Numbered from the stretch's first letter, positions 18,698 to 49,712 are shown. The stretch: 64,000 bases of DNA from an uncultured Gammaproteobacteria bacterium (GCA_964527425.1 CAZGOA010000001.1:98435-162434), one strand, 5' to 3'. Program-made: numbers and translations. Notes: generated by a model not told the origin, from the sequence alone.

Positions 18698-18750
18698 GCA
18701 GCATGTTTATTGGACCGAGTGAATAGTACTTCTCCAGCTATCCAATAGTG

Positions 18751-19488: not shown

Positions 19489-19490
19489 AA

Positions 19491-29274: not shown

Positions 29275-30570
29275 TTATGCATTTGTATGATTTAGTGAAG
29301 ATTTTGGTGAGCTAAATACTGTTCTTAATACTTCTATGTTGTTTTTTGCTTTATGGAGATATGCAGGGAGTGATTTTTTTAGTACTTCTCTATATAACTT
29401 TCTCCCATTTACTAAATTGTTAAAAGTATAGTCTAACGTATCTAGTGACACTTGATTTATTGGAATAACCCACTCACTTAAATTTAAATCTTTCATAATT
29501 CCAATAGTTTTATTCTCATAGGCTATTGCAATTGTAGGGACATACCCGGTTAGTGCAAGAATAGCTGAATGCATACGAGTAGCAACTAAATAATTTGCAG
29601 ATTCATATAGAGATTTAATTTCATATGTCGATAGTTCTTCTTTAATAACAATAACTTTGTCTGGTGATTTTAGCTTATTAATTAATGTATTAATTACTTT
29701 GCTGTCATCATCATTATGTAAAGTAGATGTACATTGAGGTACTAATACTACCTGGATATTGTTATTTAACAAAAGCTTTTCGATAAATAACTGTATAGAT
29801 TTTAAATAATATGAATAAATTGGTTCTTTTAAACGCTTAACAGTAATCATTACAACAGTTTTTTTTGTATTTATTCCAAATCTATTAAATAACATTAAAG
29901 ATGAAAATTTTATAGTGGATTTAAAAAGAAATGCCGCATCTACAGATCGATAAATAATATTTGGTTTAACTCCGATTTTTTTTAGATACGACATAGATAT
30001 ATCTTCTCTGACTAGAATTGCTTGAGTAAAATTTAAGATATATGATACATACCATTCTTGTAATTTTGATTTAAATGAACCAATAGATTGTGAGTATAAA
30101 CATACAGGTTTTCTGAGTATTTTTGCAAGTAAAAATACATGTAGATGAAGTATGAGAGTTATATAGGTATTTATCGATTTATCACCTACTAAATATCCTC
30201 CACCTGTTCCAATAACTAAATTAGATTTTTTTAACTTTAATAAAAATGTATTTAATTCTGCTGAAAAAAGAAAATAAATATTTATACCAATAAACTTATT
30301 AAGCAAAGCCCAAATGAGTGTGTTTGAGATTAGATAGCATGTTTTTATAAATCTTAAAATACTATTACTATGCTTATAAATCGCTTCATAAAAAATAGAA
30401 GTCAATAATAAGACTTCTTTATCTATTTTAGATTCTTCTAAACCTGCCATTGAAGATATCGATACATTTACATTTGGATATACTTTCCTTAACTGTGCGA
30501 TTAGACTGATGAGGATTGCAGCGTCTCCTTTATTTTTATTAGAATAATAGTTAGTAATTAATACATCCAT
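29275..30570 (-). CDS. Polysaccharide pyruvyl transferase (CsaB/WcaK family)
   Basis: 431 aa. The N-terminal LITNYYSNKNKGDAAILISL matches the GxxNxGD motif of PS_pyruv_trans. The C-terminal VATRMHSAILALTGYVPTIAIAYENK matches the conserved RxH...G.P...Y..K block. Confidence 0.6.
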   Translation of the reverse strand: MDVLITNYYSNKNKGDAAILISLIAQLRKVYPNVNVSISSMAGLEESKIDKEVLLLTSIFYEAIYKHSNSILRFIKTCYLISNTLIWALLNKFIGINIYFLFSAELNTFLLKLKKSNLVIGTGGGYLVGDKSINTYITLILHLHVFLLAKILRKPVCLYSQSIGSFKSKLQEWYVSYILNFTQAILVREDISMSYLKKIGVKPNIIYRSVDAAFLFKSTIKFSSLMLFNRFGINTKKTVVMITVKRLKEPIYSYYLKSIQLFIEKLLLNNNIQVVLVPQCTSTLHNDDDSKVINTLINKLKSPDKVIVIKEELSTYEIKSLYESANYLVATRMHSAILALTGYVPTIAIAYENKTIGIMKDLNLSEWVIPINQVSLDTLDYTFNNLVNGRKLYREVLKKSLPAYLHKAKNNIEVLRTVFSSPKSSLNHTNA

Positions 30571-30571
30571 A

Positions 30572-31669
30572 TTAATTACCTTTCACAAACTGGAGATAGG
30601 AAGAATATTGTTCTGTTACCGTATCCCAAGAAAATTGACTTGAAATCCCCATACAATTTCTTTTCAATACGTCTCTTAATTTTTTGTTTTTAATTATTTC
30701 TACAATATTATGGCCCAGTTTAAATTCATCAAAGGGCTTTGTCTTTATAGAGACTTTATTACTAAGCCACTTAAGGCCATCAATATCAAAACAAATTATT
30801 GGCGTAGCTGAAACGATAGATTCTATAGCTGTTAGACTTTGTCCTTCAAATCTAGAGGGCATTAGTAAACAGATTGCATTACTCAGCAATTGTTGTTTAT
30901 TCTTTCCTTTTACATAGCCAAGTAATTTTACATTTGATTCTAAATCATATTTTTTTACTAGTTTTTTTATTATTTCGGTATCTTGCTCTGAACCTGTTCC
31001 AGCTATATACAACATCGTTTTACATTTTTTTACTACATTAGAAAAAGCAGGAATCAACAAATCTAATCCTTTTTGTGCTATTTCCAATCTACCCATAAAT
31101 AAAACATAATTTTCTTTAGACTTTGAAATCTTTTTTATGGGTACTAGATCCGTTGCATTGGAAATTACTTTTACATTACATGACTTATTTATTTTCAGTA
31201 TTTTTTCTTTCTGGTTTTCTGTAAGTGCAATTATGTATTTATATTGTCTTATACCTAGCCTCTCAATCCATGTAAATGGTAGTTTATATTGTTTTGATTT
31301 CTGTTCTGCATCTAGAAAATGAGTCACTCCAATTACCGGTTTTTTTGTAAAAATAGGTAAAAAGGAAGTGGTAAAAGGCGGTGTAAAACTCTCAATCCAA
31401 ATATCATGTTTTTCAATTAATACATAAAAAGGAAGTATTACAGAATAAATTAATTGTCCAATTTTAGGTCCAAATATGCTTGTAGAAATGAATTTATACT
31501 TAACACCATTTATTATTCTTGATGATTGAACACCCGGATAAGAACCAGTAATTACTATAACATCGTTATTTTTGCTTAACACAGAAGAAACTTTATTCAT
31601 AACAACAGCACCGCCACCACTATAATATGGGTTTTTTATACTGTCGTATGTAGAAATTAATAGTTTCAT
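30572..31669 (-). CDS. Glycosyltransferase family 4 (GT-B, RfaB-like)
   Basis: 365 aa. FMGRLEIAQKGLDLLIPAF...LYIAGTGSE...LLMPSRFEGQSLTAIESIVSATPII is the GT4 E-x7-E region. Confidence 0.75.
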   Translation of the reverse strand: MKLLISTYDSIKNPYYSGGGAVVMNKVSSVLSKNNDVIVITGSYPGVQSSRIINGVKYKFISTSIFGPKIGQLIYSVILPFYVLIEKHDIWIESFTPPFTTSFLPIFTKKPVIGVTHFLDAEQKSKQYKLPFTWIERLGIRQYKYIIALTENQKEKILKINKSCNVKVISNATDLVPIKKISKSKENYVLFMGRLEIAQKGLDLLIPAFSNVVKKCKTMLYIAGTGSEQDTEIIKKLVKKYDLESNVKLLGYVKGKNKQQLLSNAICLLMPSRFEGQSLTAIESIVSATPIICFDIDGLKWLSNKVSIKTKPFDEFKLGHNIVEIIKNKKLRDVLKRNCMGISSQFSWDTVTEQYSSYLQFVKGN

Positions 31670-31671
31670 GT

Positions 31672-33510
31672 TTAAAATAAACTTTTTTTTGTAGAATTAA
31701 TAACTTGCCACTTAAGAGGAAAATTATTATATTCTTTTCTAGCTTTATACTTTGAATATACTCCGACAATAAAACTTAAGAGACTGGGTAATGGCTTTTT
31801 TATTAATTCAATAAGCTGTGAAGTATACAAATAAAAAATTGGTAATTCATATTCTTCATTAACCAAATTGCCAAAATTTTTCTTTAATAAATGTTTATTC
31901 ATATTGTTACGAGAATTCCATTGAATATACTCAAATAACGTGCTTGGGAAAATGAAATAACCAACAGCTGCACGAACATGCTTATATGTGAATCCGAACT
32001 TTATACAGGATAGATATAAATAACTATCAACATTACCTAATTCTTCTTTGCTTACTATTCCAGATTTTTTTATAAAATCGTTAGATAATACTAGAATTTT
32101 GCCATCGCAAGTATATTTATTATCACCATTGCGATAGAGATATCTTGCTCGCTCATATGCATTAAATGAAGCAAGACACGCTCTTTGAATAAAATTTTTT
32201 GTACCTAAAGGCTGAGGATTTCCACTTACAAGTCCTACATTTGATTCTGATCTAAAAGGTTTTATAAGTTTGTTTAAAAAATTTTTGTCTTTTATTAGGA
32301 CGTCATCATTGATCAATACAAAAACATCAGACTTATTATTTATAATTAATTGTTTAAAAGCTCCCTGAAAACCTAAGCGTTCTTTACCTTCGATAATTCT
32401 TAATTTATTTTTTTTAATTTTTCTCAAAAATTCAAGCGTTGAGTCAGTACTTTTATCACAATAAACAATAATTGATTTATATTTAAATAAAGTAGTTGAC
32501 TGGTTTATAAGAGAATGGACTAAATTTTCTATATTGTCTTGATTATTATAAGTTGGTATTCCAACAGTTAGAGAGAGCTTTTTAGTACTTTTTCTTTCAA
32601 TACTTACTACAGGTTTTTTGGTGGAACTAGATATATGCCAAATCCCATCATTATTTCTATTTATTCTCTTATAAAACTTTGTGTAAATTAAAATAATTAT
32701 ATAGCTTATTAAATGAATAGGTTTTAAAAAAGAATATTTTACTAACATTTTACCTATTGGGACTAGTGGCATATTATATTCCTTTTCAATATCGTTTCCG
32801 AAAAACTTTTTCATTCCATTAACAGAACTCTTAAATCTACTACTTTGTTTTAGATGATCTAAAAAATTATCTGGAAGTCTGTAATATATTTTCGTCCCAG
32901 TAAAATATTCAACATCCATTTTTTTTCTTTTTGCGAAAAAATAAATGTATGCATCAGTTCCAACAGTATTTGGTATATTTATTTGTTTATATAGATTTTT
33001 TTTCATCACTAGAAGCGCCCCTCTAAACGCGTAAACATTTTTACCTTTTCTAAAATTTCTTATGACGAATTCTTTAATTTCTACACTTGTAGAAAGCATC
33101 TTTTCAAAAAAACTGTTAGGTTTGACTGGCATTGCTTGAACTGATAACAATGAAATACTATTGTTATAGTTCAATTTATCAATAATTTTAAAGAGCGTAT
33201 CCTTCCTAAGAAAACAATCAGCATCAACTAGAATAACAAAGTCAGATTTACTTTTTTTAAATATTTGATTCAGTCTATAATATTTTCCTTTTCTTTCTTT
33301 TCCGTTAATTAAATGAATTTTATTGCTTTTGAATGATTTGATTATGTTAACTGTTTTATCAGTGCATCCATCTGATGCAATAATAATCTTATCAAGTACA
33401 TAATTACCAGTTTTTTGATTTAAAATGGCTGAAATAATATTTCCAATATTGTTCTCTTCGTTATATGCAGGTATGCCAATTGATAATGTAACTCTATTTA
33501 TTTTTTTCAT
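31672..33510 (-). CDS. Tandem double-GT2-domain glycosyltransferase
   Basis: 612 aa. Domain 1 is LSIGIPAYNEENNIGNII...IIASDGCTDKT...VDADCF. Domain 2 is LTVGIPTYNNQDNIENLV...YCDKSTDST...INDDVL. That gives two complete GT-A folds in one polypeptide. Confidence 0.75.
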   Translation of the reverse strand: MKKINRVTLSIGIPAYNEENNIGNIISAILNQKTGNYVLDKIIIASDGCTDKTVNIIKSFKSNKIHLINGKERKGKYYRLNQIFKKSKSDFVILVDADCFLRKDTLFKIIDKLNYNNSISLLSVQAMPVKPNSFFEKMLSTSVEIKEFVIRNFRKGKNVYAFRGALLVMKKNLYKQINIPNTVGTDAYIYFFAKRKKMDVEYFTGTKIYYRLPDNFLDHLKQSSRFKSSVNGMKKFFGNDIEKEYNMPLVPIGKMLVKYSFLKPIHLISYIIILIYTKFYKRINRNNDGIWHISSSTKKPVVSIERKSTKKLSLTVGIPTYNNQDNIENLVHSLINQSTTLFKYKSIIVYCDKSTDSTLEFLRKIKKNKLRIIEGKERLGFQGAFKQLIINNKSDVFVLINDDVLIKDKNFLNKLIKPFRSESNVGLVSGNPQPLGTKNFIQRACLASFNAYERARYLYRNGDNKYTCDGKILVLSNDFIKKSGIVSKEELGNVDSYLYLSCIKFGFTYKHVRAAVGYFIFPSTLFEYIQWNSRNNMNKHLLKKNFGNLVNEEYELPIFYLYTSQLIELIKKPLPSLLSFIVGVYSKYKARKEYNNFPLKWQVINSTKKSLF

Positions 33511-34675
33511 ATTTATTCATCCAATTATTTAATGACTCAGCTACACTTCGCCATGTGTGATGTTTTGTGTACTCAATGTTATTTTTCTGAATTACATCCA
33601 TTTCTTTTTTATTCGATGTATTCATTACATACTTAATTTTGTCTGCAAGGGTTTTGCTATCGTTGGTATCTACTAAATATCCATTCACTGCATCTTTCAC
33701 TAAATATTTTAGTGCTGTATTGTTTGCTACAATTACTACTTTTCCTTGACTCATTGCTTCATGTACTACATTGCAAAAACTTTCCCATCGTGCCATATGC
33801 ACCATCATTTCACTGTTGCGAATAAGATAAAATTTATCATCCCCTCTTACTACACCTACGAAGTGAACTCTATTAGTTAATCTTAAAGAGGCAATCATTC
33901 TTTTTAATTTTTCTAAATAATAATAATCACCTATGGGACCGGCTATTACATAATGAATATGTTGAGGAAGTGCTGCTAAAGCTTTTATTGTTGTTTCGTA
34001 ATTTTTAATGGTATAAATTCTTCCAATTTGGATGATATATGGTTTCCAGGAAGCAACATCTTTTATTAACTTATTGTTTACGATACTATCTTTTTCAATA
34101 TATCCTTCATCTTCTATACCATTAGGAATAGTTATAACGTTAGATTTACGTACACCATGTTTAATAATTTCATGTCTTTCCCATTCAGAAACTGCTCTCA
34201 CACTATTTACTGTTGAATTAATCAATACTGTGCCAACTGTATAGTGGTATATCTTCTTAAACAACTTGGTTATTGGTGAAAAAATTTCCCAGTCTGGAGT
34301 AAATCCACCATGAGGAATTAGAATCAGTTTGGGTGTGGGTAAATGAAATAATCTTCTTATTCCAACATATGCCATAAGAAATGCATGAGGAACAATATTA
34401 AAATTATGAAGTGCAACAATATCAGCACCACCCCAGGAAATACTTGGCCAAAAACCATACCACTTCCACAAATAGCGTTTAATTGAAAGGTTTCTTAATT
34501 GTTCTTTTCTTTTTAGAATATTTATCTCAGTTAAAGTATTTGTTGATGTATGTATTACAACATTCCAATTTTTTTCTGCTAATACACTATATGTTTCTAA
34601 CATATTTGTTTCTATGCCTGCTGCCACAGGATAAAAATATTTAACTATAGCATGTACTGTTTTTTTGCTACGCAT
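33494..34675 (-). CDS. Glycosyltransferase family 4
   Basis: 393 aa. FVGVVRGDDKFYLIRNSEMMVHMARWESFCNVVHEAMSQGKVVIV is the GT4 EX7E-type motif. Confidence 0.75.
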   Translation of the reverse strand: MRSKKTVHAIVKYFYPVAAGIETNMLETYSVLAEKNWNVVIHTSTNTLTEINILKRKEQLRNLSIKRYLWKWYGFWPSISWGGADIVALHNFNIVPHAFLMAYVGIRRLFHLPTPKLILIPHGGFTPDWEIFSPITKLFKKIYHYTVGTVLINSTVNSVRAVSEWERHEIIKHGVRKSNVITIPNGIEDEGYIEKDSIVNNKLIKDVASWKPYIIQIGRIYTIKNYETTIKALAALPQHIHYVIAGPIGDYYYLEKLKRMIASLRLTNRVHFVGVVRGDDKFYLIRNSEMMVHMARWESFCNVVHEAMSQGKVVIVANNTALKYLVKDAVNGYLVDTNDSKTLADKIKYVMNTSNKKEMDVIQKNNIEYTKHHTWRSVAESLNNWMNKYEKNK

Positions 34676-35468
34676 ATATTTCTCCTACAATTTTCTTGAT
34701 TGTCCCTCTTACGGCTGTAACTGTTGGAGATGCAAGAACTTTGAATTCTTTAAGTGTGTGACTTCCATCTACACCAATTCTTGGGATTGCAAATTTATTT
34801 GTGTTATTCGTGATGGAGCCATCATCCATAGAAAAAGCTACTTTATATCCTGATTTCGCAACTAACTCAAGAATCTGGTTGTTATACATACCCTTTGGAT
34901 AACAGAAAGCACTGACAGGTTTCCCAATGATTTTTTCAAGTTGTACTTTTGCGCCAATAATTTCTTTATTTAATGATTCTTTATTGCACTGTGTTAATAC
35001 TGGATGTGTTGCTGAATGACAGCCTATATCCCATAGTTCTCCTAATGCTTTTAACTTTTGAGGTGACAGCAAGGTAAGGTTTGTATTTAATACTGATCTA
35101 TTTGCGTTATTAGGATCTGATAATACAAATACCAATGGTTTAATACCTAATTTATTAAGTAAAGGTTTTGTAGAATATATATTTTCATATCCATCATCAA
35201 ACGTAATAAGAAAAGATTTTTCTTTTAATTCTTTTTTCCCAGTAACATATTCATATATATCTTTATATGAAATAGGATTACCCCAATGTACTAATACTTT
35301 CATCTGTTGCTCAAATGATTTTAAAGAAACTGAATAGCGCCAGTTGTCATTAGAAATACTGTGATAACACAAAACAGCAATTCTTGCTTGTCTATTTAAC
35401 ACTGAATCAATAAATGATGCTCCCTGATACACTGTATTACGAATAATATCTATTGGTTTTGCGTTCAT
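34668..35468 (-). CDS. Polysaccharide deacetylase (NodB/CE4 family)
   Basis: 266 aa. RIAVLCYHSIS...ITFDDGYENIY (TFDDG motif)...LVFVLSD...GCHSATHP (H-x-x-x-H-like). These are canonical CE4 motifs. Confidence 0.75.
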   Translation of the reverse strand: MNAKPIDIIRNTVYQGASFIDSVLNRQARIAVLCYHSISNDNWRYSVSLKSFEQQMKVLVHWGNPISYKDIYEYVTGKKELKEKSFLITFDDGYENIYSTKPLLNKLGIKPLVFVLSDPNNANRSVLNTNLTLLSPQKLKALGELWDIGCHSATHPVLTQCNKESLNKEIIGAKVQLEKIIGKPVSAFCYPKGMYNNQILELVAKSGYKVAFSMDDGSITNNTNKFAIPRIGVDGSHTLKEFKVLASPTVTAVRGTIKKIVGEIYA

Positions 35469-36391
35469 ATGTTTTTAGTGCTGACAGCACTCCAAGTATC
35501 TACCTGTTTTTTTATATTCACGGTTACTATCCGAAGCCATGAAAAAATAAATATATACAAGAATGTTTCTAGAGGATGTGTAATTATCAGCATACCTGCT
35601 CTAAAGGCAGCTTTAATTACCGTAATTATTGAAATATTGAATTCTTTGTTAACTAAATCAGAATCAAACACAGTAGTCATTAATTGCTTTGCTTCTGCAT
35701 ATCGAATACTTTGTTTTGTATGATCACTCATAGTACTAGGTAAACGATAAATTACTGACGCATCTACTACATACGAAAAACGCATTCTCCTTGAAATACA
35801 TGAAAAATATGAATACATATCTTCACCTTCATTCATTTCAAATCTAAATTGTGAATACAGTTTTTTTGAAAAGGCTCTGATAGGTCCGTGACAGTGATAC
35901 ACATTACTTCCCTCATTATGAGTTGCAAAAAGAATTGCTTTTAATTTCATGCTCACACTTAAAATATTTTCTAATACTGTTCTTGGTTGCGACTCAAGAA
36001 TTGCACCAGAAGTAAGATCTGCTTGGCGTTTCTTTACAGGTAAAACAATTTTTTCTATCGTTTTTTTGTCAATAATACGAACATCTCCATCAAGTAACAC
36101 GAGTGCATCTGTTGAACTCATTGAAAACAATTCATTTTGTCTAATAGCTTTTCCTAATCTTATTGATCGTTCAACTATATGTATTCTTGGATCTTTAACT
36201 GCTTTTGCTTCTTTTACTGTATTATCTGTACTCCCGTCAGAAATTATTAAAATAGATCTTATGTCTACTGAATCTAATTCTTGATTAAGGATATCTTGTA
36301 TAAGAAGTCTAATAGACTTAGCTTCATTGTAGGCAGGTATTCCAATCGTAACAGTAAATTTTCTCATACTTTTTTTATTGCCTTTACACAA
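35465..36391 (-). CDS. Glycosyltransferase family 2
   Basis: 308 aa. FTVTIGIPAYNEAKSIRLLIQDILNQ...IISDGSTDNTV...LLDGDV. Confidence 0.8.
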   Translation of the reverse strand: MCKGNKKSMRKFTVTIGIPAYNEAKSIRLLIQDILNQELDSVDIRSILIISDGSTDNTVKEAKAVKDPRIHIVERSIRLGKAIRQNELFSMSSTDALVLLDGDVRIIDKKTIEKIVLPVKKRQADLTSGAILESQPRTVLENILSVSMKLKAILFATHNEGSNVYHCHGPIRAFSKKLYSQFRFEMNEGEDMYSYFSCISRRMRFSYVVDASVIYRLPSTMSDHTKQSIRYAEAKQLMTTVFDSDLVNKEFNISIITVIKAAFRAGMLIITHPLETFLYIFIFSWLRIVTVNIKKQVDTWSAVSTKNI

Positions 36392-37068
36392 GTAACACAG
36401 GGAAAATTTGGATCATTAAAATCTAATTCTTCTTTCGTAAGTTCTTCTTGACTCATTCCTACCCAAAAACATTGTCCGCTATATACATTCCCAAAAGTCT
36501 GAATAGTAACATTTTCATTCTTAAATATTTTTTCGAATAATATTTTTGCACCACCTGGCATAATTCTCCAGTTACCAGAGTTTCCTTCAAAAATAGGAGC
36601 AAAGCAGGCGTTCGTTACTAACGCTACTCCACCGGGTTTTAATATTCTATGAATTTCTTTTACGGCTGCAGGTAAATCATTAATTAGACCCAATACATGA
36701 GTTAAAATAATTGTGTCAAATGTATTATCTTTAATATCTACTAAACTTTGTAAATCGCCGTATATCGTAGCTTTTTTATTATCACGATTAATGTCAAGAA
36801 TTTCTCTTTTTGTTACGTGTTCATTACCGAACTGTTTGGTGTATCGATCGTCTCCAATTTCAAGACAAACACCTTTAATAACATTTTTGTGTTTTCGTAT
36901 GAATGACTCAATCCAATATCGATCAATAGGAGTCCCTCTATCGTATCCAAATTTTGTACTTAAAGGTTTTAATTTTTTGGTAACTAAGGGGTATTTATTA
37001 GCTGGATTGATTCTTAATAAAATAACTGCGCGAATGTTAGAAAGTAATATTAATAACTTGTCTTTCAT
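36364..37068 (-). CDS. Class I SAM-dependent methyltransferase
   Basis: 234 aa. VCLEIGDDRY is motif I (E/DxGxG-like), and ILTHVLGLINDLPAAVKEIHRILKPGGVALVT is motif II/III of Methyltransf_11/12 type. Overlaps both neighbours. Confidence 0.7.
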   Translation of the reverse strand: MKDKLLILLSNIRAVILLRINPANKYPLVTKKLKPLSTKFGYDRGTPIDRYWIESFIRKHKNVIKGVCLEIGDDRYTKQFGNEHVTKREILDINRDNKKATIYGDLQSLVDIKDNTFDTIILTHVLGLINDLPAAVKEIHRILKPGGVALVTNACFAPIFEGNSGNWRIMPGGAKILFEKIFKNENVTIQTFGNVYSGQCFWVGMSQEELTKEELDFNDPNFPCVTCVKAIKKV

Positions 37069-38936
37069 AATGAAACTCCTTTTGTGCTAAAGGATTGAAA
37101 GGCACCTAATTGTGATCCAATATCTAATACTGACTGATATCTCAATCTACTTTTGGGATGTGAATTAGTCATCAAATTTTGTAGTGAACAGTTAATCATA
37201 AGACTGGCAATTGGTAGTTGTAAGTTTCTTTTATAACTCTTGGCTAATAATGATTTGAGCAACATTGAAGCCACAGTCAGATTTGTTTTTCGGCTTGATA
37301 TTGATGCAATTACATCATAGTGAGGATAGGTTATTCTCATTTGTTCACAATCAATAATGCCAATATATCCTTTTCCTAAAAATATATTTTCACCATGTAA
37401 ATCCCCATGGGTAAGTACATATTCTTTTTCATTGAGCAATGAAGGAACACCACGCAGCAACAATCCAATTACCCGAATAAACAAAAAGATTTTCTTAGGA
37501 CTCTTTTTGATTAAAACAACTATTACCAATGGCAAGAACAAAAGAAAATGTTTTAGCGTTCTTTGTCCAATAATATATTTTTCTTCCTGTGTTAGATGGT
37601 TGGTTAATTCCTGTAGAAAATCAATTACAGTCTTTACACTTGTTAACTGTGCTTTGGGACTACTAAATGATAGTGTTTCTCTGCCTTCAATATATGAACG
37701 CATTAAGATAAGTCTATTTTGTTGTTCATTATAAGAAATAAATGACGGCAACAATACTTTGCTATTTTTTAATGAACTTGTAACACGTCTAATAGCTTTT
37801 GTTAACACTTGATATACAGCAATTTCATGTCGCAAATTAATATAAGAGAGTGTTTTTCGTTTGCCTTCCCATAGTTTAACAATAACTCGTTCATGTTTTT
37901 TATTCTGGTATACACCTACTGATATATTTGTTTGTTTGTTTGATGAAAGTACATCAACTAGTGCATAACCAGATATTCGTTTTGGTAATCTTGATAGGTG
38001 TTCTTGATTAATTCCGAAGATGACTTCCCTTAGCGCAATACAAATTTTTTTCATAATAGATACCTGCGGTATATACTTGTATTCAGTCGGAATTTTATCT
38101 ATCTCCAATAAAAACTTTATAACACTCTTTCTCATTCTGATTTTTAGATTTCTATCGGTTAAAAAAAGTGTTGCAATAAATATTCCTAAAGAAATATGAT
38201 AATTCGATAGAGTTTTATATTTTAATAAAACCTTTCTCATTTTTGCGTCATCCCATCGGTTAATTAAGAGCATAAGGAAATCCCAATCTTTTACAGTAAA
38301 AGCGGCATATGGCCAATCAACAATTACTTCTTTTTTTCCATGCTTTAGTATGTTTTTGAGGTGTATATCTCTGTGGGCAAAGTATGAAGCTTGTTCTTGA
38401 AATAATTGAATTGCACCATTAATAAATATCTTTAAACTGTGAAAGTAAAGAAAAAATAATTCTGGAAAAGCTATAAGTGCTTTGATTAAGATATATGGAT
38501 AACTCAATACTAATAACCAACCTGGCCTTGAAGGTATTACAGAATTTTTTTTATTTTCTAACTTTTTTGTTAAAGAAGAAATATTTGTAAGCATTCGTAA
38601 TACAGTAGTTATTTTAGTTTTTTGTGAAAAATGAATAAGTTCTTTTGAAGATATATATGGAAACAAAACGATAAATCTCCATTTTTGTTTAACCACACCT
38701 ACAACAGGTAACACAAAGGAGAATTTGTGTTTTTCTAGCAGCTGTAAAATTGCAACCTCTCGTTCTAGCAGTAATCTTTTTTTAGATCGCTGACTTCCAG
38801 AATACCCTTTAGCAAAAAATTTTTTACCATGTTTATCTTTATAAATTGCATAGACATATGCTGTTTGATTTATATATGAAAACCGATTCACAAAATAAGA
38901 ATTATCAATTTTTTCAGGGAATATTGGATCAGTCAT
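37065..38936 (-). CDS. Tandem protein-kinase-like / aminoglycoside-phosphotransferase-like (PKL-fold) double-domain protein
   Basis: 623 aa. Module 1 has FFAKGY (beta3 Lys), HRDIHLKNIL (catalytic loop) and VIVDWPY (DFG-equivalent). Module 2 has VIVKLWEGKRK, HGDLHGENIF (Brenner motif) and IIDCEQM. Two kinase-like catalytic cores in tandem. Confidence 0.5.
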   Translation of the reverse strand: MTDPIFPEKIDNSYFVNRFSYINQTAYVYAIYKDKHGKKFFAKGYSGSQRSKKRLLLEREVAILQLLEKHKFSFVLPVVGVVKQKWRFIVLFPYISSKELIHFSQKTKITTVLRMLTNISSLTKKLENKKNSVIPSRPGWLLVLSYPYILIKALIAFPELFFLYFHSLKIFINGAIQLFQEQASYFAHRDIHLKNILKHGKKEVIVDWPYAAFTVKDWDFLMLLINRWDDAKMRKVLLKYKTLSNYHISLGIFIATLFLTDRNLKIRMRKSVIKFLLEIDKIPTEYKYIPQVSIMKKICIALREVIFGINQEHLSRLPKRISGYALVDVLSSNKQTNISVGVYQNKKHERVIVKLWEGKRKTLSYINLRHEIAVYQVLTKAIRRVTSSLKNSKVLLPSFISYNEQQNRLILMRSYIEGRETLSFSSPKAQLTSVKTVIDFLQELTNHLTQEEKYIIGQRTLKHFLLFLPLVIVVLIKKSPKKIFLFIRVIGLLLRGVPSLLNEKEYVLTHGDLHGENIFLGKGYIGIIDCEQMRITYPHYDVIASISSRKTNLTVASMLLKSLLAKSYKRNLQLPIASLMINCSLQNLMTNSHPKSRLRYQSVLDIGSQLGAFQSFSTKGVSL

Positions 38937-41466
38937 TCCATCCTCCTTGAATTACCATTGATCTCTTTCTCTTTTTTTCTAAAGCTAGTTCGTATGTTGT
39001 TCTCATAACATTTATTAACGTATCTACACGTTCATTCCAGTCAAAAGTTGAAGCCCATTGTTTTGCTTCTTTAGACATACGATTGCGCTCTTTCGAATTT
39101 CGAATGAGTTTCATTATTGCTCTGGCAAAAGCATTTACATTTCCAGAAGATACAAGCATTCCTGTTTTACCTTGCACAATTGAATCTTTTAACCCGTTTA
39201 CATTACTGCCAATGACCGGTGTACCAAATGAATTTGCTTCAATTACGGTTATTCCCCACCCTTCTATTGAAGATGGATGGACAGCAACCCAAGCTGAAGA
39301 AAACAATTCTGATTTTTTGTCTTCTGGGATATGACCTAAAAACTCAACATATTCCTGAATGTTTAATTTTTTTGCAAGTTGTTTTAGATGTCTGCCATAT
39401 TCTCCGTGTCCTGCTATTACTAGCCGTGAAGTGGGAATTAATGGATGAACCTTGGCAAATGCTTTTATAATCACATCTACTCTTTTATATGCTTTTAATC
39501 TTCCAAAATAGAGAATGCTTGGAAATTGAGACTTTTCAGAAATTAGTTGTTCTGAAGGGTTTATGATCCCTGGCTCAATAACAGTTACTCTTTTAGATTC
39601 AGCAAATTTATGCTTCACAATTTCTTTTTTTGATGACTGAGAAACAGTTACTAATAAAGAATCTTTATAGATCCAGGGCATTAGCTTCTTCTCAAGAAAC
39701 ATTGCAACATATGAAAAAGGAAACCATAAATGTTTTTGAAATACGTCTTGATGAACATGATGCACAACTAATACAACAGGAATTCTTGCATAAATGGGAG
39801 AAAAGAAAGGAATCCCATTTTCACAGTCAATAATCATGTCAAATTGACCTCGAAAAGCAAATAAATAATATATAGATGCCCATATATATACGGTATAAAA
39901 ACCACCTCTTCGAACCATTTGCACCCCATCAATTACTTGATTACGTACTGATCGTTGATCATTTCCACAAAACATCGTTACTTTATATCCTCGATCTACT
40001 AACCGTTTTGCAATTTCATGCAAATAAACTTCTGACCCTCCTGCCCACACATGTTTTGTATCTCTCCAGTTTAAAATTAATACTGATGGTTTAGTCTTTT
40101 CTTCTCTAGTTAAGGGGGTTAAAAAGCCCTCAACAGCATCTCGTAAGTTTCGTAATACAGTATCTCCAAATTGTTTATATTTATGTGTAAATATAATTCC
40201 TAATAGATAAAGAATTGCGGTTATTGAAACAACTAAGACAACATCACCCATAGTATTATGTCTAAAACTAATACCAATAAGCATTAGCATTGAAAACAAA
40301 AATCCAACTATAGAAAATAAATGCTGATCTTTTGACTGATAATACGCAACTATCCCGCTAGCAAGTGCAAGACATCCCATCGCAAATGTATACAGACTTG
40401 TATAGGGAGCTACGATCGATAGCAAACCTTCTTTATCCATAAAAAAGAGTGTTGTTTGACTAAATACTCCAAATGTAATCCAGCCAAAGATATTAATTAC
40501 AAATGTAATAATCATTATTGGGAAAATAATGTCTTTATCGTTTCTTCCTTCGCCTTTTCTTTTACTAATTAATGGATTTAAAAATTGAGTAAATAACACC
40601 CCGAGAAAATAAACAATTTTACCTATAAACGACAAGAAAACGTATTGACCTGCTTGTTCAGGAGACAAAAAATGTTTTGCTAATAACACATCGAGGTTTA
40701 AAAAAATAACAGAAGAAAATTTACTTAATAACGAACTAGCTATAAATGTTTTTGACAATGCAGCCTTATTAGATACTTTATTTTTCTTGATTTTTCTTGA
40801 AATACCGAGTGCGATGTACCAACAAAAAAGAAATGAAGTAATTGATGATATTGGAATTGCTATATAAAACCATGCAGATAAACGCATTTCTATAAGGATT
40901 ACCGTAAGCAGTAACTTAACTAGTACTTCTACAATTAATGAAATTGCAATTGCTCTAAATGCTAATACTCCTGATAAGAATCCAGAATCAACTGCAGCAG
41001 TAATACCTATGAGCCATAAAGGTGTTAACAGAATAAAGGGTAATAACCTATCTGTTTGAAAAAATGCTGCTAAAAAAGGTATAGATACTAGCCATACTAT
41101 ACTTATTGCAATCGCTGGAGTAATACTTTTTCTTCGTAATTGTCTCCAAAAATCTACTGGAGGAAACCCATGTTTGCCTAATTGATATGCAGTTGCATGA
41201 ACAATTGATCGTGAATAGGCTGATAATGGAATTTGAGCGATATTTAACAAACTACCTATTAATCCAATTACTCCAAATTCTGCTACTGAAATAACATCTG
41301 ATCGAACAAGGTAAACGCTATATAGCAAATTACAGATGTTTGCAAACATTGAAGCAAAAACAAGAAATATGCCGCTTTTCCAACTTTTTGAAGATTTTAT
41401 ATTTAGAATTAATGATTGAAGTAATACGATCATACCACCTATTGCGTAACTTGAAGTATGTCGCAA
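38929..41466 (-). CDS. Fusion of a Wzx-like MOP flippase membrane domain and a C-terminal GT4 glycosyltransferase
   Basis: 845 aa. The N-terminal ~430 aa is polytopic with the Wzx-type start FASMFANICNLLYSVYLVRSDVISVAEFGVIGLIGSLLNIAQIPLSAYSRSIVHATA. The C-terminal ~400 aa is GT4 (SVLILNWRDTKHVWAGGSEVY...HPSSIEGWGITVIEANSFGTPVIGSNVNGLKD). Confidence 0.6.
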   Translation of the reverse strand: MRHTSSYAIGGMIVLLQSLILNIKSSKSWKSGIFLVFASMFANICNLLYSVYLVRSDVISVAEFGVIGLIGSLLNIAQIPLSAYSRSIVHATAYQLGKHGFPPVDFWRQLRRKSITPAIAISIVWLVSIPFLAAFFQTDRLLPFILLTPLWLIGITAAVDSGFLSGVLAFRAIAISLIVEVLVKLLLTVILIEMRLSAWFYIAIPISSITSFLFCWYIALGISRKIKKNKVSNKAALSKTFIASSLLSKFSSVIFLNLDVLLAKHFLSPEQAGQYVFLSFIGKIVYFLGVLFTQFLNPLISKRKGEGRNDKDIIFPIMIITFVINIFGWITFGVFSQTTLFFMDKEGLLSIVAPYTSLYTFAMGCLALASGIVAYYQSKDQHLFSIVGFLFSMLMLIGISFRHNTMGDVVLVVSITAILYLLGIIFTHKYKQFGDTVLRNLRDAVEGFLTPLTREEKTKPSVLILNWRDTKHVWAGGSEVYLHEIAKRLVDRGYKVTMFCGNDQRSVRNQVIDGVQMVRRGGFYTVYIWASIYYLFAFRGQFDMIIDCENGIPFFSPIYARIPVVLVVHHVHQDVFQKHLWFPFSYVAMFLEKKLMPWIYKDSLLVTVSQSSKKEIVKHKFAESKRVTVIEPGIINPSEQLISEKSQFPSILYFGRLKAYKRVDVIIKAFAKVHPLIPTSRLVIAGHGEYGRHLKQLAKKLNIQEYVEFLGHIPEDKKSELFSSAWVAVHPSSIEGWGITVIEANSFGTPVIGSNVNGLKDSIVQGKTGMLVSSGNVNAFARAIMKLIRNSKERNRMSKEAKQWASTFDWNERVDTLINVMRTTYELALEKKRKRSMVIQGGWND

Positions 41467-43745
41467 TATGATGGCAGGTGAGATATATTTTTGTTATTTT
41501 TATTTGTAAAGGTATATTGTTCTAATACATGTTTAAATCCATCTGACTGATTCTCTTTTTTAAATTTATGTGTTTTTTTAATACGTTGTTTATGCTGTAA
41601 ATGAAATCCATGAACTGTTTTGCTCCAATAAAATGGGCGGTATATCATTTCAAAGAGAGATCGCCATGCAGCAATACTCATAGCTAGCCAATATATAGGT
41701 GTTAATAATGCATATTTAATGAGTTCATAGTATCCACGCTTTACACAACCAATCATATATATATACATATACATAAAATTTCCGAATACTAGAGAAAACA
41801 CTCCTAAATACAAAACAGGACCAGGGTAAAATGACTCAATAGTAGGACCTATAACGGATCTAAAAGCAAAATAAGAAATTGTAATTAACCACATAAATGG
41901 ATTAATTAACATTGATAATACTTTTCCGCCAACTATTAAATGAAAGAGAATTCCATCAGGTTGTGTTACGGTACTTGTAAACTTATGAGAATCTCTAACA
42001 TGCACTAAATAGGTTTGAATATATCCTTTTATCCAACGACTTCGCTGACCATACCAGTTCCAGGCTTTACTCGTTGCTTCTTCCATAGTTGTAGAATCGA
42101 TTACTGCAGTTTTCAATTTTCGCTTTGATAAACGCATTCCCAAATCACAATCTTCTGTTACATTAAATGCATCCCAGCCTTTTAGATCATGTAAATCACT
42201 AACTCTAAAATGATTTGAAGTCCCTCCTAAAGGGATTGGAGCGCCTATCGATTGAAGACCTGGCAATATTAAATCAAACCACAACGAATATTCGGCAGTG
42301 AACATGCGTGTAATAATATTTTGCTGTGGATTATAAAAATTTAGTTTTGCTTGCAAACATACAACATCACTTGAAACTTTATTAAAGGTTATTACTGATT
42401 TTTTTAACTGTAATGGATCTGGAATATCTTCTGCATCATATATCACTGCATAGGTTCCTTTTGCGCGTGATAGACCATAATTAAGAGCTTTTGGTTTAGT
42501 TTTTGGTTTACTATCAGGAACGAGTAATACTTCCATGTATTTTGGAATTGTCATTTTTTTTATATTCTCGATTGATTCAGAATCATCTTCCTCTAATAAC
42601 AGTAGTACTTGAAGTTTATCTTTAGGATAATTCATTTGACTCATTGCCCTAATAAATTGAGGCAGAACTCTCCATTCTTTATAGAGAGGACAAAAAATTG
42701 TATACGTAGGCCAAATATTATCTGGTTGTGAAATTATTTCTTGATCTTTAATATGATACTCATGCTGTGTAGAAAAACTTCGTGATACAAGAAATGCTTG
42801 AAAAAGCACATCTGCAAAATAAAAAAAAGTGAGTACTGCAATCAATATTACAAGTGTTGAGTGCCAAGAAATAATAAACCCGATCGTAAGAAGGAGTATA
42901 AGACCTATTAGTATTACTCCTTGATTAAATGTTAAACGCAGAAACGCTGATTCGGTAAAATCTAACTCTGTATGATGAATATATTCTTTTCCTTTGTGTG
43001 TAAATCCTTTCCCATATTTCTTTTGCTTTTCGGGATGAAAAGGAATTATGTGATTACCTAATAACTTAATGAGTATGGCATCAATAGCCATTGATATACT
43101 TGCCTTCAGTATATTAATCTTTGGTTTACCTGAAAAACGCTTTTCAAATAATATTGGATGAGACGTTAATATATACCCTGCATTTTTTGCTCTATATAAA
43201 AAATCTAAATCAAATTTCCATCCCTTACCTTGAGGTTTAATATGTTCAAGTACACTTTTCCTAAATACTTTTAATCCAGATTGAGCATCAAGCGAAATAT
43301 TAAGTAACTTTTTTACAAAAAAGATACGATACGATTTACTAATGATCGAACGAAGAATTGTAGTATTTCTCTCTTTGCGTTCTGCTATTACTATATCGAC
43401 TTGATCATGTATGAGTGTTTTGACCATTGCAGGAATAGCTTCAGGGGGATATTGTAAGTCAGCATCAATCATTGCAATTATCCCGTTGTTCACCTTAGAA
43501 AAACCGATAAGTAACGATTCTGCCTTGCCACTGTTTCCTAAGTTATCAATAATTTTTATCGGATATGTTTTTGCAAGTCGTTGTATTATAACTTTCGTAT
43601 TATCTGTTGAATGGTCGTTAACGAATATTATTTCATAACTCAGATTAGCTTTTTTGCATGAATTATCAATACGAACGACTAGTGGTTCGATGTTATTTTC
43701 TTCATTAAACGCAGGAATGACAATAGAAATTAAAGGTTGAGACAT
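41439..43745 (-). CDS. Dual GT2 protein: N-terminal DPM1-like GT2 plus a membrane-embedded processive (cellulose/chitin-synthase-like) GT2 with a QxxRW motif
   Basis: 768 aa. Domain 1 is ISIVIPAFNEENNIEPLV...FVNDHSTDNT...IDADLQYPP. TM helices follow. Domain 2 has YDAEDIP (DxD), VTEDCDLG (TED) and GQRSRWIKGY (QxxRW), and ends in C-terminal TM helices. Confidence 0.65.
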   Translation of the reverse strand: MSQPLISIVIPAFNEENNIEPLVVRIDNSCKKANLSYEIIFVNDHSTDNTKVIIQRLAKTYPIKIIDNLGNSGKAESLLIGFSKVNNGIIAMIDADLQYPPEAIPAMVKTLIHDQVDIVIAERKERNTTILRSIISKSYRIFFVKKLLNISLDAQSGLKVFRKSVLEHIKPQGKGWKFDLDFLYRAKNAGYILTSHPILFEKRFSGKPKINILKASISMAIDAILIKLLGNHIIPFHPEKQKKYGKGFTHKGKEYIHHTELDFTESAFLRLTFNQGVILIGLILLLTIGFIISWHSTLVILIAVLTFFYFADVLFQAFLVSRSFSTQHEYHIKDQEIISQPDNIWPTYTIFCPLYKEWRVLPQFIRAMSQMNYPKDKLQVLLLLEEDDSESIENIKKMTIPKYMEVLLVPDSKPKTKPKALNYGLSRAKGTYAVIYDAEDIPDPLQLKKSVITFNKVSSDVVCLQAKLNFYNPQQNIITRMFTAEYSLWFDLILPGLQSIGAPIPLGGTSNHFRVSDLHDLKGWDAFNVTEDCDLGMRLSKRKLKTAVIDSTTMEEATSKAWNWYGQRSRWIKGYIQTYLVHVRDSHKFTSTVTQPDGILFHLIVGGKVLSMLINPFMWLITISYFAFRSVIGPTIESFYPGPVLYLGVFSLVFGNFMYMYIYMIGCVKRGYYELIKYALLTPIYWLAMSIAAWRSLFEMIYRPFYWSKTVHGFHLQHKQRIKKTHKFKKENQSDGFKHVLEQYTFTNKNNKNISHLPSYCDILQVTQ

Positions 43746-48793: not shown

Positions 48794-49690
48794 TTACATT
48801 TTAAGATATCTATTTACTGCACTATAGCTTCCTATACATCCTAACAAATATCCAAATGTTGTAAGTACTGCAAAAAAACCTAATGCTGATAGTATAAATA
48901 ACGATCCTGAAGGATTACTTAATAAAGCATTCATTACAGGAACTACTCCTAAAAAAGTTAATAATGCTTCTCTAGCATACAAAACAAGTGCAATAATCAC
49001 AAAAAAGGCAATCATTCCTCCCAGCGCCCCATAAAATCCTCCTTCTATTATAAACGGAGAACGAATATACCACCTTGAGGCACCTACTAATCTTAATATT
49101 TCAATTTCTTCTTTACGCAGTGCAATTTTCATACTTGTTATGGTTAGAATGATCAATACAGCATTTACCGCTAATATTCCCACTAATGCGCCTAAAACAA
49201 TTCTGATTCCACGAGTCCATTTTAGGAGTGATTCAACCACGTCACGCTGGAATACTACTTCTTCTACACCTTGTGCCTGTTTTATTATTGGTTCGATTTC
49301 CGTTAAGTACTCAGGAGCAAGCGGCATAATTTCTAGTGATGCAGGTAAAATATCTGCTGTAACCATTTCCAGTAACAATGGATCATTTTTATTTTGCTCT
49401 TGATACAGTAATAATGCGTCCTCTTTAGAAATAAATTTTGTATTGCTTACCATTCCCGTTTGTTCTAACGTTGCAACCAGGGCATCTGCTTCTGTTTTTC
49501 CTGCTCTATCAGCAAAAAATACGGTAATCTGTGGTTTTCCCTCAAAATATCGCAGCATTTCAATTGATGCCATTGATGTAATCCCAAAAATACCAGCAAG
49601 TAACAGAGTAATAAACATCGTTAAAACAGCTCCTATTGTTTGATAGGGTGATCGTCTTATATGTTTCCAGCTTGTTTTAAATGCTTTCAT
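48794..49690 (-). CDS. ftsX: Cell division permease FtsX
   Basis: 298 aa. An N-terminal cytoplasmic segment, TM1, a large extracytoplasmic loop, then three C-terminal TM helices. RLVGASRWYIRSPFIIEGGFYG is the conserved FtsX motif. Confidence 0.8.
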   Translation of the reverse strand: MKAFKTSWKHIRRSPYQTIGAVLTMFITLLLAGIFGITSMASIEMLRYFEGKPQITVFFADRAGKTEADALVATLEQTGMVSNTKFISKEDALLLYQEQNKNDPLLLEMVTADILPASLEIMPLAPEYLTEIEPIIKQAQGVEEVVFQRDVVESLLKWTRGIRIVLGALVGILAVNAVLIILTITSMKIALRKEEIEILRLVGASRWYIRSPFIIEGGFYGALGGMIAFFVIIALVLYAREALLTFLGVVPVMNALLSNPSGSLFILSALGFFAVLTTFGYLLGCIGSYSAVNRYLKM

Positions 49691-49712
49691 AAGAATGTTG
49701 ATTGCTGACTAA

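Follow-up and report, generated by a model that had tools for sequence, protein, structure and literature searches.

Tandem APH-type kinase modules beside a methyltransferase in a predicted glycopolymer assembly cassette of Patescibacteria

Introduction

Two unrelated methyltransferase-kinase pairs make methyl-phosphate caps. WbdD of Escherichia coli O9a and Klebsiella pneumoniae O3 is a single polypeptide composed of a methyltransferase (residues 1 to 210), a kinase resembling Src-type protein kinases (residues 211 to 459), and a long C-terminal coiled coil; the protein is trimeric, brings in the polymerase, and acts together with Wzm/Wzt-CBM (PMC3482155). In K. pneumoniae O7 ORF6-N, a methyltransferase accompanies a kinase whose closest fold is that of the APH-family protein AmiN, so that unrelated parts have given rise to methyl-phosphate capping on more than one occasion (PMC11231755). 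ORF6 differs from the locus described here: a very large coiled-coil protein, it carries GT2 polymerase modules and a single kinase, and its pathway depends on an ABC transporter.

The locus reported here was found in a 64,000-nucleotide stretch of DNA (the window). It resembles WbdD in pairing a predicted SAM-dependent methyltransferase (MT) with a predicted kinase that belongs to the protein-kinase-like superfamily and would use ATP, in having fused and MT-only variants, and in the probable site of action, since WbdD acts on polyprenol-linked glycan at the cytoplasmic membrane. It differs in that the kinase and MT are separate genes in the opposite order, with the kinase upstream (an order shared by the natural fusion P0268), and in that two APH-fold modules are present, with no coiled coil and no ABC exporter.

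Other relevant kinases are more distant. The lipopolysaccharide (LPS) core kinases WaaP, WaaY, and KdkA, which are also protein-kinase-like, add phosphate to the sugars of a lipid-linked glycan on the inner side of the membrane, and the paralogs WaaP and WaaY act on neighboring residues; they belong to another Pfam family (PF06293) and act on Gram-negative LPS rather than in a CPR cassette. The Bacillus spore-coat kinases CotS/CotI (YtaA), encoded beside the GT4 CotSA, have neither a tandem or paired arrangement nor MT or deacetylase partners, and the modules described here score far below that family's cutoff (21 versus 173 bits). Members of the APH family (PF01636; APH(4)-Ia hygromycin B kinase, APH(9), APH(3'), LicA, NahK, and FN3K) are 10 to 18% identical to our modules, which differ in occurring as an A/B pair or tandem fusion, in being basic rather than acidic, and in being embedded in, or fused to, glycan assembly enzymes.

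Patescibacteria (CPR) are ultra-small bacteria that live attached to other cells, and their surface polymers are little known. Here, we define a conserved cassette and an undescribed APH-fold kinase family whose two paralogous subfamilies travel as a pair.

Results

The kinase-like gene overlaps the MT gene by 4 bp (ATGA; junction sequence TTATGAAA), with an AGGAG Shine-Dalgarno sequence upstream. The MT stop codon shares a second 4-nt ATGA overlap with the ATG of the next GT2 gene, and at its start the kinase gene has 8 nt in common with the GT4 gene upstream. Because these junctions all overlap, the genes that meet at them are predicted to be translationally coupled. The GT2 gene likely starts at ATG 36367 rather than at the listed TTG 36391. 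These open reading frames and the 4-bp overlap agree with the preliminary description, as do the two tandem kinase-like cores, with HRDIHLKN (amino acids [aa] 188 to 195) and HGDLHGEN (aa 510 to 517), and the surrounding polysaccharide cluster with its deacetylase and pyruvyl transferase (Table 1).

TABLE 1 Features of the kinase-MT locus and other window genes considered in the comparison
Feature	Coordinates	Strand	Remarks
Polysaccharide pyruvyl transferase	29275..30570	-	Pfam scan
Two paralogous membrane proteins, 541 and 528 aa	25913..29121	-	10 to 13 transmembrane segments; cassette end
Double GT2 (612 aa), GT4 (365 aa), polysaccharide pyruvyl transferase (431 aa)	29275..33510	-	Variable cassette part; includes the pyruvyl transferase at 29275..30570
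GT4	33494..34675	-	Constant cassette member; Pfam scan and conserved gene order
Polysaccharide deacetylase (PF01522)	34668..35468	-	Family-level resemblance best to PgaB/IcaB N-deacetylases
GT2, ~300 aa	35465..36367	-	One C-terminal hydrophobic segment; Pfam Glycos_transf_2, E 2.8e-22
Predicted class I SAM-dependent MT, 234 aa	36364..37068	-	Methyltransf_11
Kinase-like gene, 623 aa	37065..38936	-	Two paralogous modules; stop codon 37065..37067
Kinase module B, aa 314-623, HGD subfamily	37068..37997	-	Beta3 Lys K354; alphaC Glu E371; H510-G-D512, catalytic Asp D512; Asn N517; metal-binding Asp D529
Kinase module A, aa 1-313, HRD subfamily	37998..38936	-	Beta3 Lys K43; alphaC Glu E58; H188-R-D190, catalytic Asp D190; Asn N195; metal-binding Asp D207
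845-aa protein	38929..41466	-	N-terminal ~11-transmembrane polytopic domain and C-terminal GT4
768-aa protein	41439..43745	-	GT2 and synthase-like GT2 with transmembrane segments
Nucleotidyltransferase	18751..19488		Beside rml genes
FtsEX	48794..50468		ABC system
MacB/HlyD-type set	61198..63919		ABC system

Upstream of the kinase gene, the 768-aa and 845-aa proteins correspond to one protein of ~1330 to 1610 aa in relatives, where the membrane domain of the 845-aa protein is weakly MATE/Polysacc_synt-like. At the other end of the cassette, the two paralogous membrane proteins match NF047440 (LA_3751/LA_3752 putative glycosyltransferase; E 4e-17 and 3e-8), their orthologs match PMT_2, and their cassette position is conserved; they are probably GT-C-type transferases. 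Rfam and tRNA scans across the window gave no matches.

Locus contexts were reached through MT homologs. The order giant GT2-GT2-membrane-GT4, kinase A, kinase B, MT, GT2, PgaB-like deacetylase, GT4, GT2s, and two GT-C-like membrane proteins is shared by loci L001, L004, L005 ("Candidatus Woesebacteria," CP066693.1), L010, L020, and L089. The kinase-MT-GT2-deacetylase synteny recurs in diverged genomes from independent metagenomes, and the GT2 gene 3' of MT holds the same position in all cassettes. Two cassettes (L091 and L093) have no kinase and a third (L094) has one; the MT of the kinase-less siblings nests inside the kinase-associated clade. Across 80 metagenome loci of the MT family, a kinase was present in only four. 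We read the cassette as a conserved CPR unit, predicted to be translationally coupled and to serve membrane-associated glycopolymer assembly, and the kinases are an apparently optional addition, dispensable for the cassette rather than part of its core. The catalytic-loop pattern [LF][VT]HGDLHx[EDG]N proved generic when run over genome contigs: it recovered one true relative (L005) in 600 stretches, and L006 to L008 were unrelated APHs.

The two kinase modules align with each other at 23% identity (E 2e-18), their catalytic residues matching column for column, including the lysine and metal-binding aspartate first described in each. All of these residues are invariant in a 60%-identical homolog, against which the two halves are conserved alike (56.5% and 63.5%). 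Across 92 HRD-type and 60 HGD-type modules, the Lys, catalytic Asp, and metal-binding Asp are each 100% conserved, the Glu ~95%, and the Asn ~99%, which argues against the suggestion that one module is a pseudokinase or ruler. The 623-aa protein matches Pfam APH in two stretches (E 3e-18; 66.9 bits versus a gathering cutoff of 23.2), and each half does so alone (26.8 and 44.2 bits; E 5e-6 for module A). At E ≤ 0.1, the Pfam scan gave neither PF06293 (Kdo/WaaP) nor CotH, and none of the characterized NCBIfam equivalogs (such as APH(3'), LicA, ThiK, AmgK, and CotS) was reached, the best scores being 14 to 29 bits against cutoffs of 173 to 550. A PDB sequence search with the single kinase protein returned 0 matches, and the profile returned catalytic-loop matches only. 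Module B is predicted to adopt a bilobal kinase fold with an APH-type helical C-lobe and a compact helical end (pLDDT 94.1); the full-length AF2 model, built from a two-sequence alignment, reached a pLDDT of 35. The hydrophobic stretch at aa 460 to 501 was considered as a transmembrane anchor and rejected, as it forms two well-packed core helices in the model. Together, these features indicate that modules A and B are anciently diverged APH-type paralogs, catalytically intact and apparently active. The APH and Methyltransf_11 matches above their cutoffs, the similarity of the two halves, and the recurring synteny speak against a chance resemblance.

The two subfamilies are distinct and keep company. 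The nearest neighbor was of the same type (HRD or HGD) for 146 of 152 modules, versus 52% expected by chance. Tandem fusion of A and B is the minority arrangement (9 of 151 top representatives), separate adjacent genes being usual in relatives; all nine tandem proteins place the HRD module before the HGD module, and split loci keep this order. The family comprises 559 cluster representatives at E ≤ 1e-3. Literature searches found no description of it, and we regard it as undescribed so far.

Natural fusions connect the family with enzymes of deacetylation, methylation, and glycosyl transfer and with a flippase-like domain. In P0268, a kinase is followed by an MT that shares 44% identity with the MT of the window (E 5e-68). 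Deacetylase-kinase and GT2-deacetylase-kinase fusions also occur (P0198, P0212, P0256, and P0214), as do kinase-GT4, PIG-L-kinase, and kinase-GNAT fusions. The membrane domain of the 845-aa protein is homologous (E 1e-75 to 1e-26) to one that P0160, P0237, P0233, P0173, P0192, and P0171 carry in fusion with HRD-type kinases. Such fusions establish functional linkage without indicating the acceptor. The gene order and fusions support functional coupling of the kinase and MT genes and their participation in glycan biosynthesis. Because recurring synteny and natural fusions couple kinase, MT, and glycan genes, the earlier proposal of a new glycan phosphorylation module fits the locus. We therefore lean toward reading the 623-aa gene as a fusion of an HRD kinase and an HGD kinase that, with the MT, GT2, and deacetylase, would form the tailoring section of a glycopolymer pathway.

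The MT matches only the C-terminal half of the Methyltransf_11 profile (43.8 bits versus a cutoff of 21.2; E 4e-11), and its motif I is atypical (CLEIGDD, lacking the usual GxGxG). It carries the family-specific N-terminal motif GYDRGTPIDRYWIE; E70, D92, and D118 are invariant in the family alignment, D105 is nearly so, and SAM binding is predicted. More than 820 homologs were found.

The proximity of MT and kinase raises the analogy with a WbdD-like terminator, in which the kinase would phosphorylate the nonreducing terminal sugar and the MT would methylate the phosphate, the cap stopping polymerization and licensing export. The two genes are adjacent, translationally coupled, and fused in P0268, and one of the two known capping kinases, that of O7, is itself APH-like (PMC11231755). 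Moreover, distant MT relatives adjoin Wzt ATPases whose Wzt_C domain binds caps, and in some of these relatives the MT is joined to a GT2 and a short coiled coil, so terminator MTs may be among the members of the MT family. Cassettes without and with the kinase also parallel E. coli O8 (methyl) and O9a (methyl-phosphate), respectively. However, homology to WbdD was not found: PDB searches gave 0 WbdD matches with the kinase in phmmer, and WbdD was absent from the best 60 of 218 kinase-profile matches and from the 41 MT matches at E ≤ 10; nor was preferential fold similarity of the kinase module to WbdD detected. A coiled-coil ruler would not fit, since alignments of the two ~310-aa modules fully cover the 623 aa and the MT aligns end to end with its own family (234 aa). 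Wzm/Wzt are absent from the window, as noted earlier, where the only ABC systems are FtsEX and a MacB/HlyD-type set, and a search for ABC ATPase open reading frames in L001 to L005, L010, and L020 found none. One cap does not require two active kinases. Furthermore, the kinase-less sibling cassettes keep a nested MT, so the MT appears not to need the kinase product, and methyl-phosphate chemistry is weakened accordingly. The split WbdD first suggested as a possibility is thus not supported, and membership in the WbdD family fails; a methyl-phosphate cap is possible by analogy, and we judge the terminator as a whole unlikely.

Precursor salvage is an improbable alternative to glycan tailoring. 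The modules would phosphorylate free sugars, as anomeric HexNAc/HexN kinases such as NahK, AmgK, and GlcN kinase do, and so supply an auxotrophic CPR cell with precursors for its nucleotide sugars. Dependence on salvage is a trait of CPR bacteria, and there are weak NCBIfam matches to AmgK and thiamine kinase. No nucleotidyltransferase, however, is conserved in the cassettes compared, the sole window copy lying beside rml genes (Table 1). The fusions to a polytopic membrane domain, a polysaccharide-type deacetylase, and glycosyltransferases point instead to membrane-bound intermediates, and cassettes that are identical in other respects can lack the modules.

A regulatory role as protein kinases is quite doubtful; the modules would then phosphorylate the machinery of glycosyl transfer or flipping and so control polysaccharide assembly, in function comparable to BY-kinases or Hanks kinases. 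The HRD motif, a weak match of the N-half to the Pkinase (PF00069) N-lobe (E 0.001), the fusion to a membrane domain, and the appearance of YihE/SrkA (an APH-like fold and reported Ser/Thr kinase) among the Foldseek matches are consistent with such a role. Nevertheless, the Pkinase score lies below its cutoff (15.7 versus 31.7 bits), and the D-x-H-x-x-N loop, which is typical of APH, occurs in both subfamilies. Because the module model superposes on protein kinases over only ~170 residues (~165 to 175), versus 250 to 260 on APHs, its C-lobe is assigned to the small-molecule type. These results replace the earlier view of one eukaryotic-like and one APH/CotH-like core with two APH-type paralogs, and they make the HRD versus HGD motif an unsafe guide to kinase class.

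The nearest solved folds are enzymes that act on free small molecules, not polymers, the best Foldseek matches being resistance enzymes (APH(4), APH(9), APH(3'), Mph, and corramycin phosphotransferase). The preliminary description had named a small-molecule kinase match with no glycan link as the outcome that would count against it; the aminoglycoside-type match was borne out, but the link to glycans is strong. It is highly improbable that the modules serve in detoxification or in resistance to antibiotics (aminoglycosides, macrolides, or peptides) and only happen to lie in the cluster, given their conserved position inside the cassette, their fusions to cassette enzymes, an NCBIfam APH(3') score of 29 bits versus a cutoff of 205, and a strongly basic median pI of 9.7, classical APHs being acidic, although this pI may merely reflect an AT-rich proteome. 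A phosphocholine reading (choline kinase plus phosphoethanolamine MT) was also dropped: Pfam scans of the window genes examined gave no LicC/LicD-like family, and the matches were generic.

Discussion

In the glycopolymer tailoring reading that we prefer, both modules would bind ATP and Mg and transfer phosphate, as suggested by the motifs seen in both and the fold modeled for module B. The acceptor would be one or two sugar hydroxyls on a lipid-linked or nascent glycan, probably on or beside the amino sugar exposed by the deacetylase, given the deacetylase-kinase fusions and the aminoglycoside-kinase-like fold. The MT would modify the same intermediate. By methylating the phosphate, it may produce methyl-phosphate, as WbdD and the K. 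pneumoniae O7 enzyme do; a kinase-independent methylation at an O or N atom of a sugar is more likely.

A bolder version of this mechanism, which we think unlikely, can be envisaged. KinA and KinB (modules A and B) would form an obligate hetero-pair docked on the flippase-like membrane domain and install a phosphate-based cap or a zwitterionic phospho-amino-sugar on a surface glycopolymer of CPR, which the MT would complete as methyl-phosphate. Such a pair would make up a third independently evolved MT-kinase glycan-capping system, one that gates export without a coiled-coil ruler or ABC transporter and is switched in and out between closely related episymbiont lineages. If the kinases phosphorylate glycan at all, they would represent a new enzyme family for site-specific glycan phosphorylation, and cassettes with two, one, or no kinases would constitute a natural presence/absence series by which surface charge might be related to host attachment.

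The neighborhood of MT and PF01522 deacetylase recalls NodB/NodS- and ArnC/ArnD/ArnT-type logic, in which an amino sugar is deacetylated and then tailored, and the combination of GT2, deacetylase, and GT-C-like membrane proteins resembles the Arn and mycobacterial PpgS systems. Matches to NodB (E 1e-7), ArnC (1e-3), and NodS (1.5) are weak and at family level, and no acyltransferase or flippase orthologs were identified. We therefore take the resemblance as a lead rather than as membership. An orthologous trio of GT2, MT, and deacetylase across phyla was also considered and rejected for GT2, as the GT2 in the window has no specific relationship to that found in GT2-MT fusions. Of the proposed trio, the MT-deacetylase link alone stands: the two genes are neighbors in 18 of 57 MT loci and occur together in 39 of 57, and some loci carry them fused.

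Coupled kinase and methyltransferase genes

The preliminary description had placed a methyltransferase gene in a 4-bp overlap with a gene encoding HRDIHLKN and HGDLHGEN catalytic motifs. The ORF listing, Pfam searches, and reading of the junction confirmed that these reading frames and motifs are real and not due to chance. Pfam assigned the 623-aa protein to APH (PF01636; E = 3e-18) in two stretches and the 234-aa protein to Methyltransf_11 (E = 4e-11). At the kinase/methyltransferase junction (TTATGAAA), the TGA stop of the kinase and the ATG start of the methyltransferase (MT) share ATGA, with an AGGAG Shine-Dalgarno sequence upstream of the MT start. An 8-nt overlap joins the start of the tandem kinase gene to the end of the 845-aa gene upstream of it, and the MT stop shares 4 nt with an ATG of the GT2 gene that follows. 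These junctions show that the kinase, the MT, and the glycosyltransferases are translationally coupled. Because of the last overlap, the TTG listed as the GT2 start (35465..36391, minus strand; TTG at 36391) is probably wrong; the ATG at 36367, which forms the ATGA overlap with the MT stop, also agrees with the 300-aa gene call in locus L002.

Two paralogous kinase modules of the APH superfamily

The two halves of the 623-aa protein (aa 1 to 313 and 314 to 623) are 23% identical over 283 residues (E = 2e-18), and each matched APH separately. Judged by sequence, two paralogous modules stand in tandem within the protein. Alignment with relatives placed a complete catalytic set in the same columns of both halves (K43/K354, E58/E371, H188-x-D190/H510-x-D512, N195/N517, and D207/D529). 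When 1.84 billion representatives were searched exhaustively with HMMER, 559 kinase relatives emerged at E ≤ 1e-3, 341 of them at E ≤ 1e-10. Most of the best 150 of the 559 are single modules of 300 to 350 aa; among the query and these 150, nine proteins, including the query and a close homologue, are tandems, all nine with the HRD-type module preceding the HGD-type module.

Among 160 modules, 92 were HRD type and 60 were HGD type. Lys, Asp, and the metal-binding Asp were kept in 100% of both types, Glu in 90/92 HRD-type and 54/60 HGD-type modules, and Asn in 91/92 and 60/60, respectively. The nearest neighbor was of the same type for 146 of 152 modules, versus 52% by chance, and the two window halves were similarly conserved relative to a 60%-identical homologue (56.5% and 63.5% identity). 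Together, the same-type neighbors, intact catalytic residues, and similar conservation of the halves indicate that the HRD and HGD types are two old paralogous subfamilies, KinA and KinB, respectively. The earlier contrast between a eukaryotic-like HRD core and an APH-like HGD core is therefore withdrawn, and neither module resembles the pseudokinase or ruler domain once suggested for one of them, the catalytic residues being near-invariant in both types.

An AlphaFold2 model of KinB, built from a 135-sequence module alignment, reached a pLDDT of 94.1 and a pTM of 0.91. In fold comparisons, it scored 20.5 against the hygromycin B kinase APH(4)-Ia (262 residues aligned), 17.4 against corramycin phosphotransferase, 17.0 against APH(3')-VIII, 16.6 against APH(9), 16.5 against type II homoserine kinase, 15.5 against both LicA and YtaA, 14.1 against NahK, 13.8 against maltokinase, 13.0 against PknB (174 residues aligned), and 12.2 against glucosamine kinase. 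Profile, fold (KinB model), and catalytic residues all place the window kinase gene in the APH superfamily. These data show that each half of the tandem kinase has an APH-type active site for ATP-dependent phosphotransfer.

KinA-type and KinB-type modules alike are strongly basic (median pI, 9.7), which fits an anionic or membrane-bound partner but may be explained equally by an AT-rich proteome. Two residues distinguish the window kinase from the database representative P0001 (D11A and A577V, window residue first), and near-identical copies occur on contigs of 249 to 301 kb from several sequencing runs, one of them also in NCBI.

A conserved glycan cassette

The window is AT-rich (28 to 36% GC) and contains a long minus-strand glycan island in which the kinase and MT form part of an ordered cassette (see the table).

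Genes of the cassette and of the second glycan region
Feature	Coordinates	Strand	Source or region
Gene 1: GT2 + synthase-like GT2, 768 aa		-	cassette
Gene 2: polytopic membrane domain + GT4, 845 aa		-	cassette
Gene 3: tandem kinase, 623 aa	37065..38936	-	cassette; ORF listing
Gene 4: MT, 234 aa	36364..37068	-	cassette; ORF listing
Gene 5: GT2		-	cassette
Gene 6: PgaB/IcaB-like deacetylase		-	cassette
Gene 7: GT4		-	cassette
Gene 8: double GT2		-	cassette
Gene 9: GT4		-	cassette
Gene 10: pyruvyl transferase		-	cassette
End (11): two membrane proteins, 10-13 TM segments each, matching LA_3751/LA_3752 putative glycosyltransferase family (NCBIfam, below cut-off)	25913..29121	-	cassette
Wzx-type flippase	2725..4170	-	second glycan region
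Two PMT_2 GT-C proteins	8154..9662, 11625..13238	-	second glycan region
GT87-like protein	9703..10845	-	second glycan region
GT2-GtrA fusion	13266..14375	-	second glycan region
UDP-glucose dehydrogenase + rmlA/B/D-like genes	15467..19488	-	second glycan region

The cassette recurs in independent assemblies (loci L001, L004, L005, L010, L020, and L089). The L001 kinase is 60% identical to that of the window, the KinA (333 aa) and KinB (322 aa) genes of L004 are not fused, and L005 is the Candidatus Woesebacteria chromosome CP066693.1. In most relatives (L004, L005, L009, L010, L090, L091, L093, and L094), genes 1 and 2 form one giant protein of 1330 to 1610 aa. The 768-aa and 845-aa proteins are split, with overlapping ends, in the window (38929..43745, minus strand) and in L089. 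The two membrane proteins at the cassette end are adjacent paralogues and probably a GT-C pair. A Pfam scan of both gave no match, their orthologues match PMT_2 weakly, and the pair closes every cassette.

Fusions of the kinase to glycan assembly enzymes

Fusions were surveyed among the best 150 of the 559 kinase representatives. One protein joins a KinA-type module to an MT-family domain with 44% identity to the window MT (P0268; E = 5e-68). Others are deacetylase-kinase (P0198, P0212, and P0256), GT2-deacetylase-kinase (P0214), PIG-L deacetylase-kinase (P0236), kinase-GT4 (P0249), and kinase-Acetyltransf_6 (P0225) fusions. In six more (P0160, P0171, P0173, P0192, P0233, and P0237), a KinA-type module follows a multi-pass membrane domain (~5 to 12 predicted TM segments) whose homologue in the window is the N-terminal part of the 845-aa protein (E = 1e-75 to 1e-26) and which weakly resembles MatE/Polysacc_synt. 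The fusions thus link the kinases to the membrane-bound machinery of glycan assembly, with the deacetylase as the most frequent partner; they show evolutionary coupling of the kinases to deacetylase, MT, GT4, and membrane domain.

The kinases are an optional addition to the cassette

Across the giant-GT cassettes of Patescibacteria (CPR) with readable context, a kinase pair or tandem was present in nine (window/L002, L001, L004, L005, L010, L020, L089, L090, and the P0011 locus), a single HRD-type kinase in L094, and none in L091 (Microgenomates GCA_007376345.1) and L093. In the last two, MT-GT2-deacetylase-GT4 and the pair of membrane proteins are still present, with their order unchanged. 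In a crude neighbor-joining tree with no bootstrap, the kinase-less MTs nest inside the kinase-associated clade. The kinase-less cassettes and this nesting indicate that the kinases are an optional add-on and that the MT is independent of them. L091, L093, and L094 form a natural presence/absence series for the kinases, with gene order otherwise identical. L090 (10422..12208) has two short kinase genes (285 and 290 aa) whose catalytic loops have drifted (QGDFNVAN and HADINASN) but whose Lys, Asp, Asn, and Asp are preserved; they adjoin a 1106-aa GT2-deacetylase fusion, not an MT.

MT homologues carry the source names Woesebacteria, Microgenomates, and Saccharimonadia, so the window very probably belongs to a CPR genome. 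When the MT profile was used to retrieve 80 metagenome loci, only 4 proved to contain kinase modules (L010, L011, L016, and L020). Among the 57 MT loci with enough downstream sequence, 39 contained a PF01522-type deacetylase, directly downstream in 18. Outside CPR, MT fusions were of the GT2-MT, GT2-(short coiled coil)-MT-deacetylase, and deacetylase-MT types. Triple GT2-MT-deacetylase fusions from high-GC organisms (L053, L075, and L077) have a short, Ala/Glu/Arg-rich, helical, coiled-coil-like GT2/MT linker (aa ~250 to 300).

In several of the loci with such MT fusions, all distant relatives, the gene just upstream encodes a Wzt ATPase that bears the cap-binding domain Wzt_C (E = 2e-9 in L037 and 7e-10 in L050), so some MT-family members are plausibly terminator methyltransferases of ABC-transporter-dependent glycans. 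This suggests an uncharacterized terminator methyltransferase family in such pathways outside CPR. MT-family genes directly follow Wzt-type ABC ATPases, some with Wzt_C, in five loci outside CPR (L037, L046, L050, L054, and L062).

Relation to known systems and proposed mechanism

The window kinase falls within no characterized NCBIfam equivalog, and our literature search found no description of the kinase family. The preliminary description had offered a split WbdD, the MT-kinase O-antigen terminator of E. coli O9a, or a new glycan phosphorylation module. The window kinase and MT differ from WbdD in domain order, show no homology to it, lack its coiled coil, and have no Wzm/Wzt partner; these four differences in defining features rule out membership in the WbdD family. 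The glycan-linked kinase/MT module is upheld by the cassette and the fusions, but the split WbdD is not. We conclude that a conserved glycopolymer cassette of CPR includes, as an optional tailoring module, an undescribed family of paired or tandem APH-fold kinases. By analogy, the module may work like MT-kinase cappers or like glycan kinases of the WaaP/WaaY type. What is new here, and testable, is the kinase family with its fusions; the fold and the chemistry are familiar.

In the mechanism that we propose, KinA and KinB would act at the cytoplasmic face on a lipid-linked or nascent glycan, phosphorylating sugar at one or two hydroxyls; the amino sugar exposed by the deacetylase, or a residue beside it, would probably be the site. 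The MT would modify the same glycan intermediate. That the MT persists in cassettes without kinases favors methylation of a sugar O or N atom. Methylation of the phosphate is kept as a second reading; a natural kinase-MT fusion and the precedents of E. coli O8/O9a and K. pneumoniae O7 (PMC3482155, PMC11231755) speak for it.

Other features of the window

A second glycan region with several GT2s occupies 1..19500 on the minus strand. Between 19700 and 24600, GC content rises to 0.38 to 0.395, versus 0.28 to 0.34 in adjoining stretches; this segment encodes a CAP-domain protein, two proteins with fn3 / F5_F8-type-C-like domains, and a YibE/F membrane protein.
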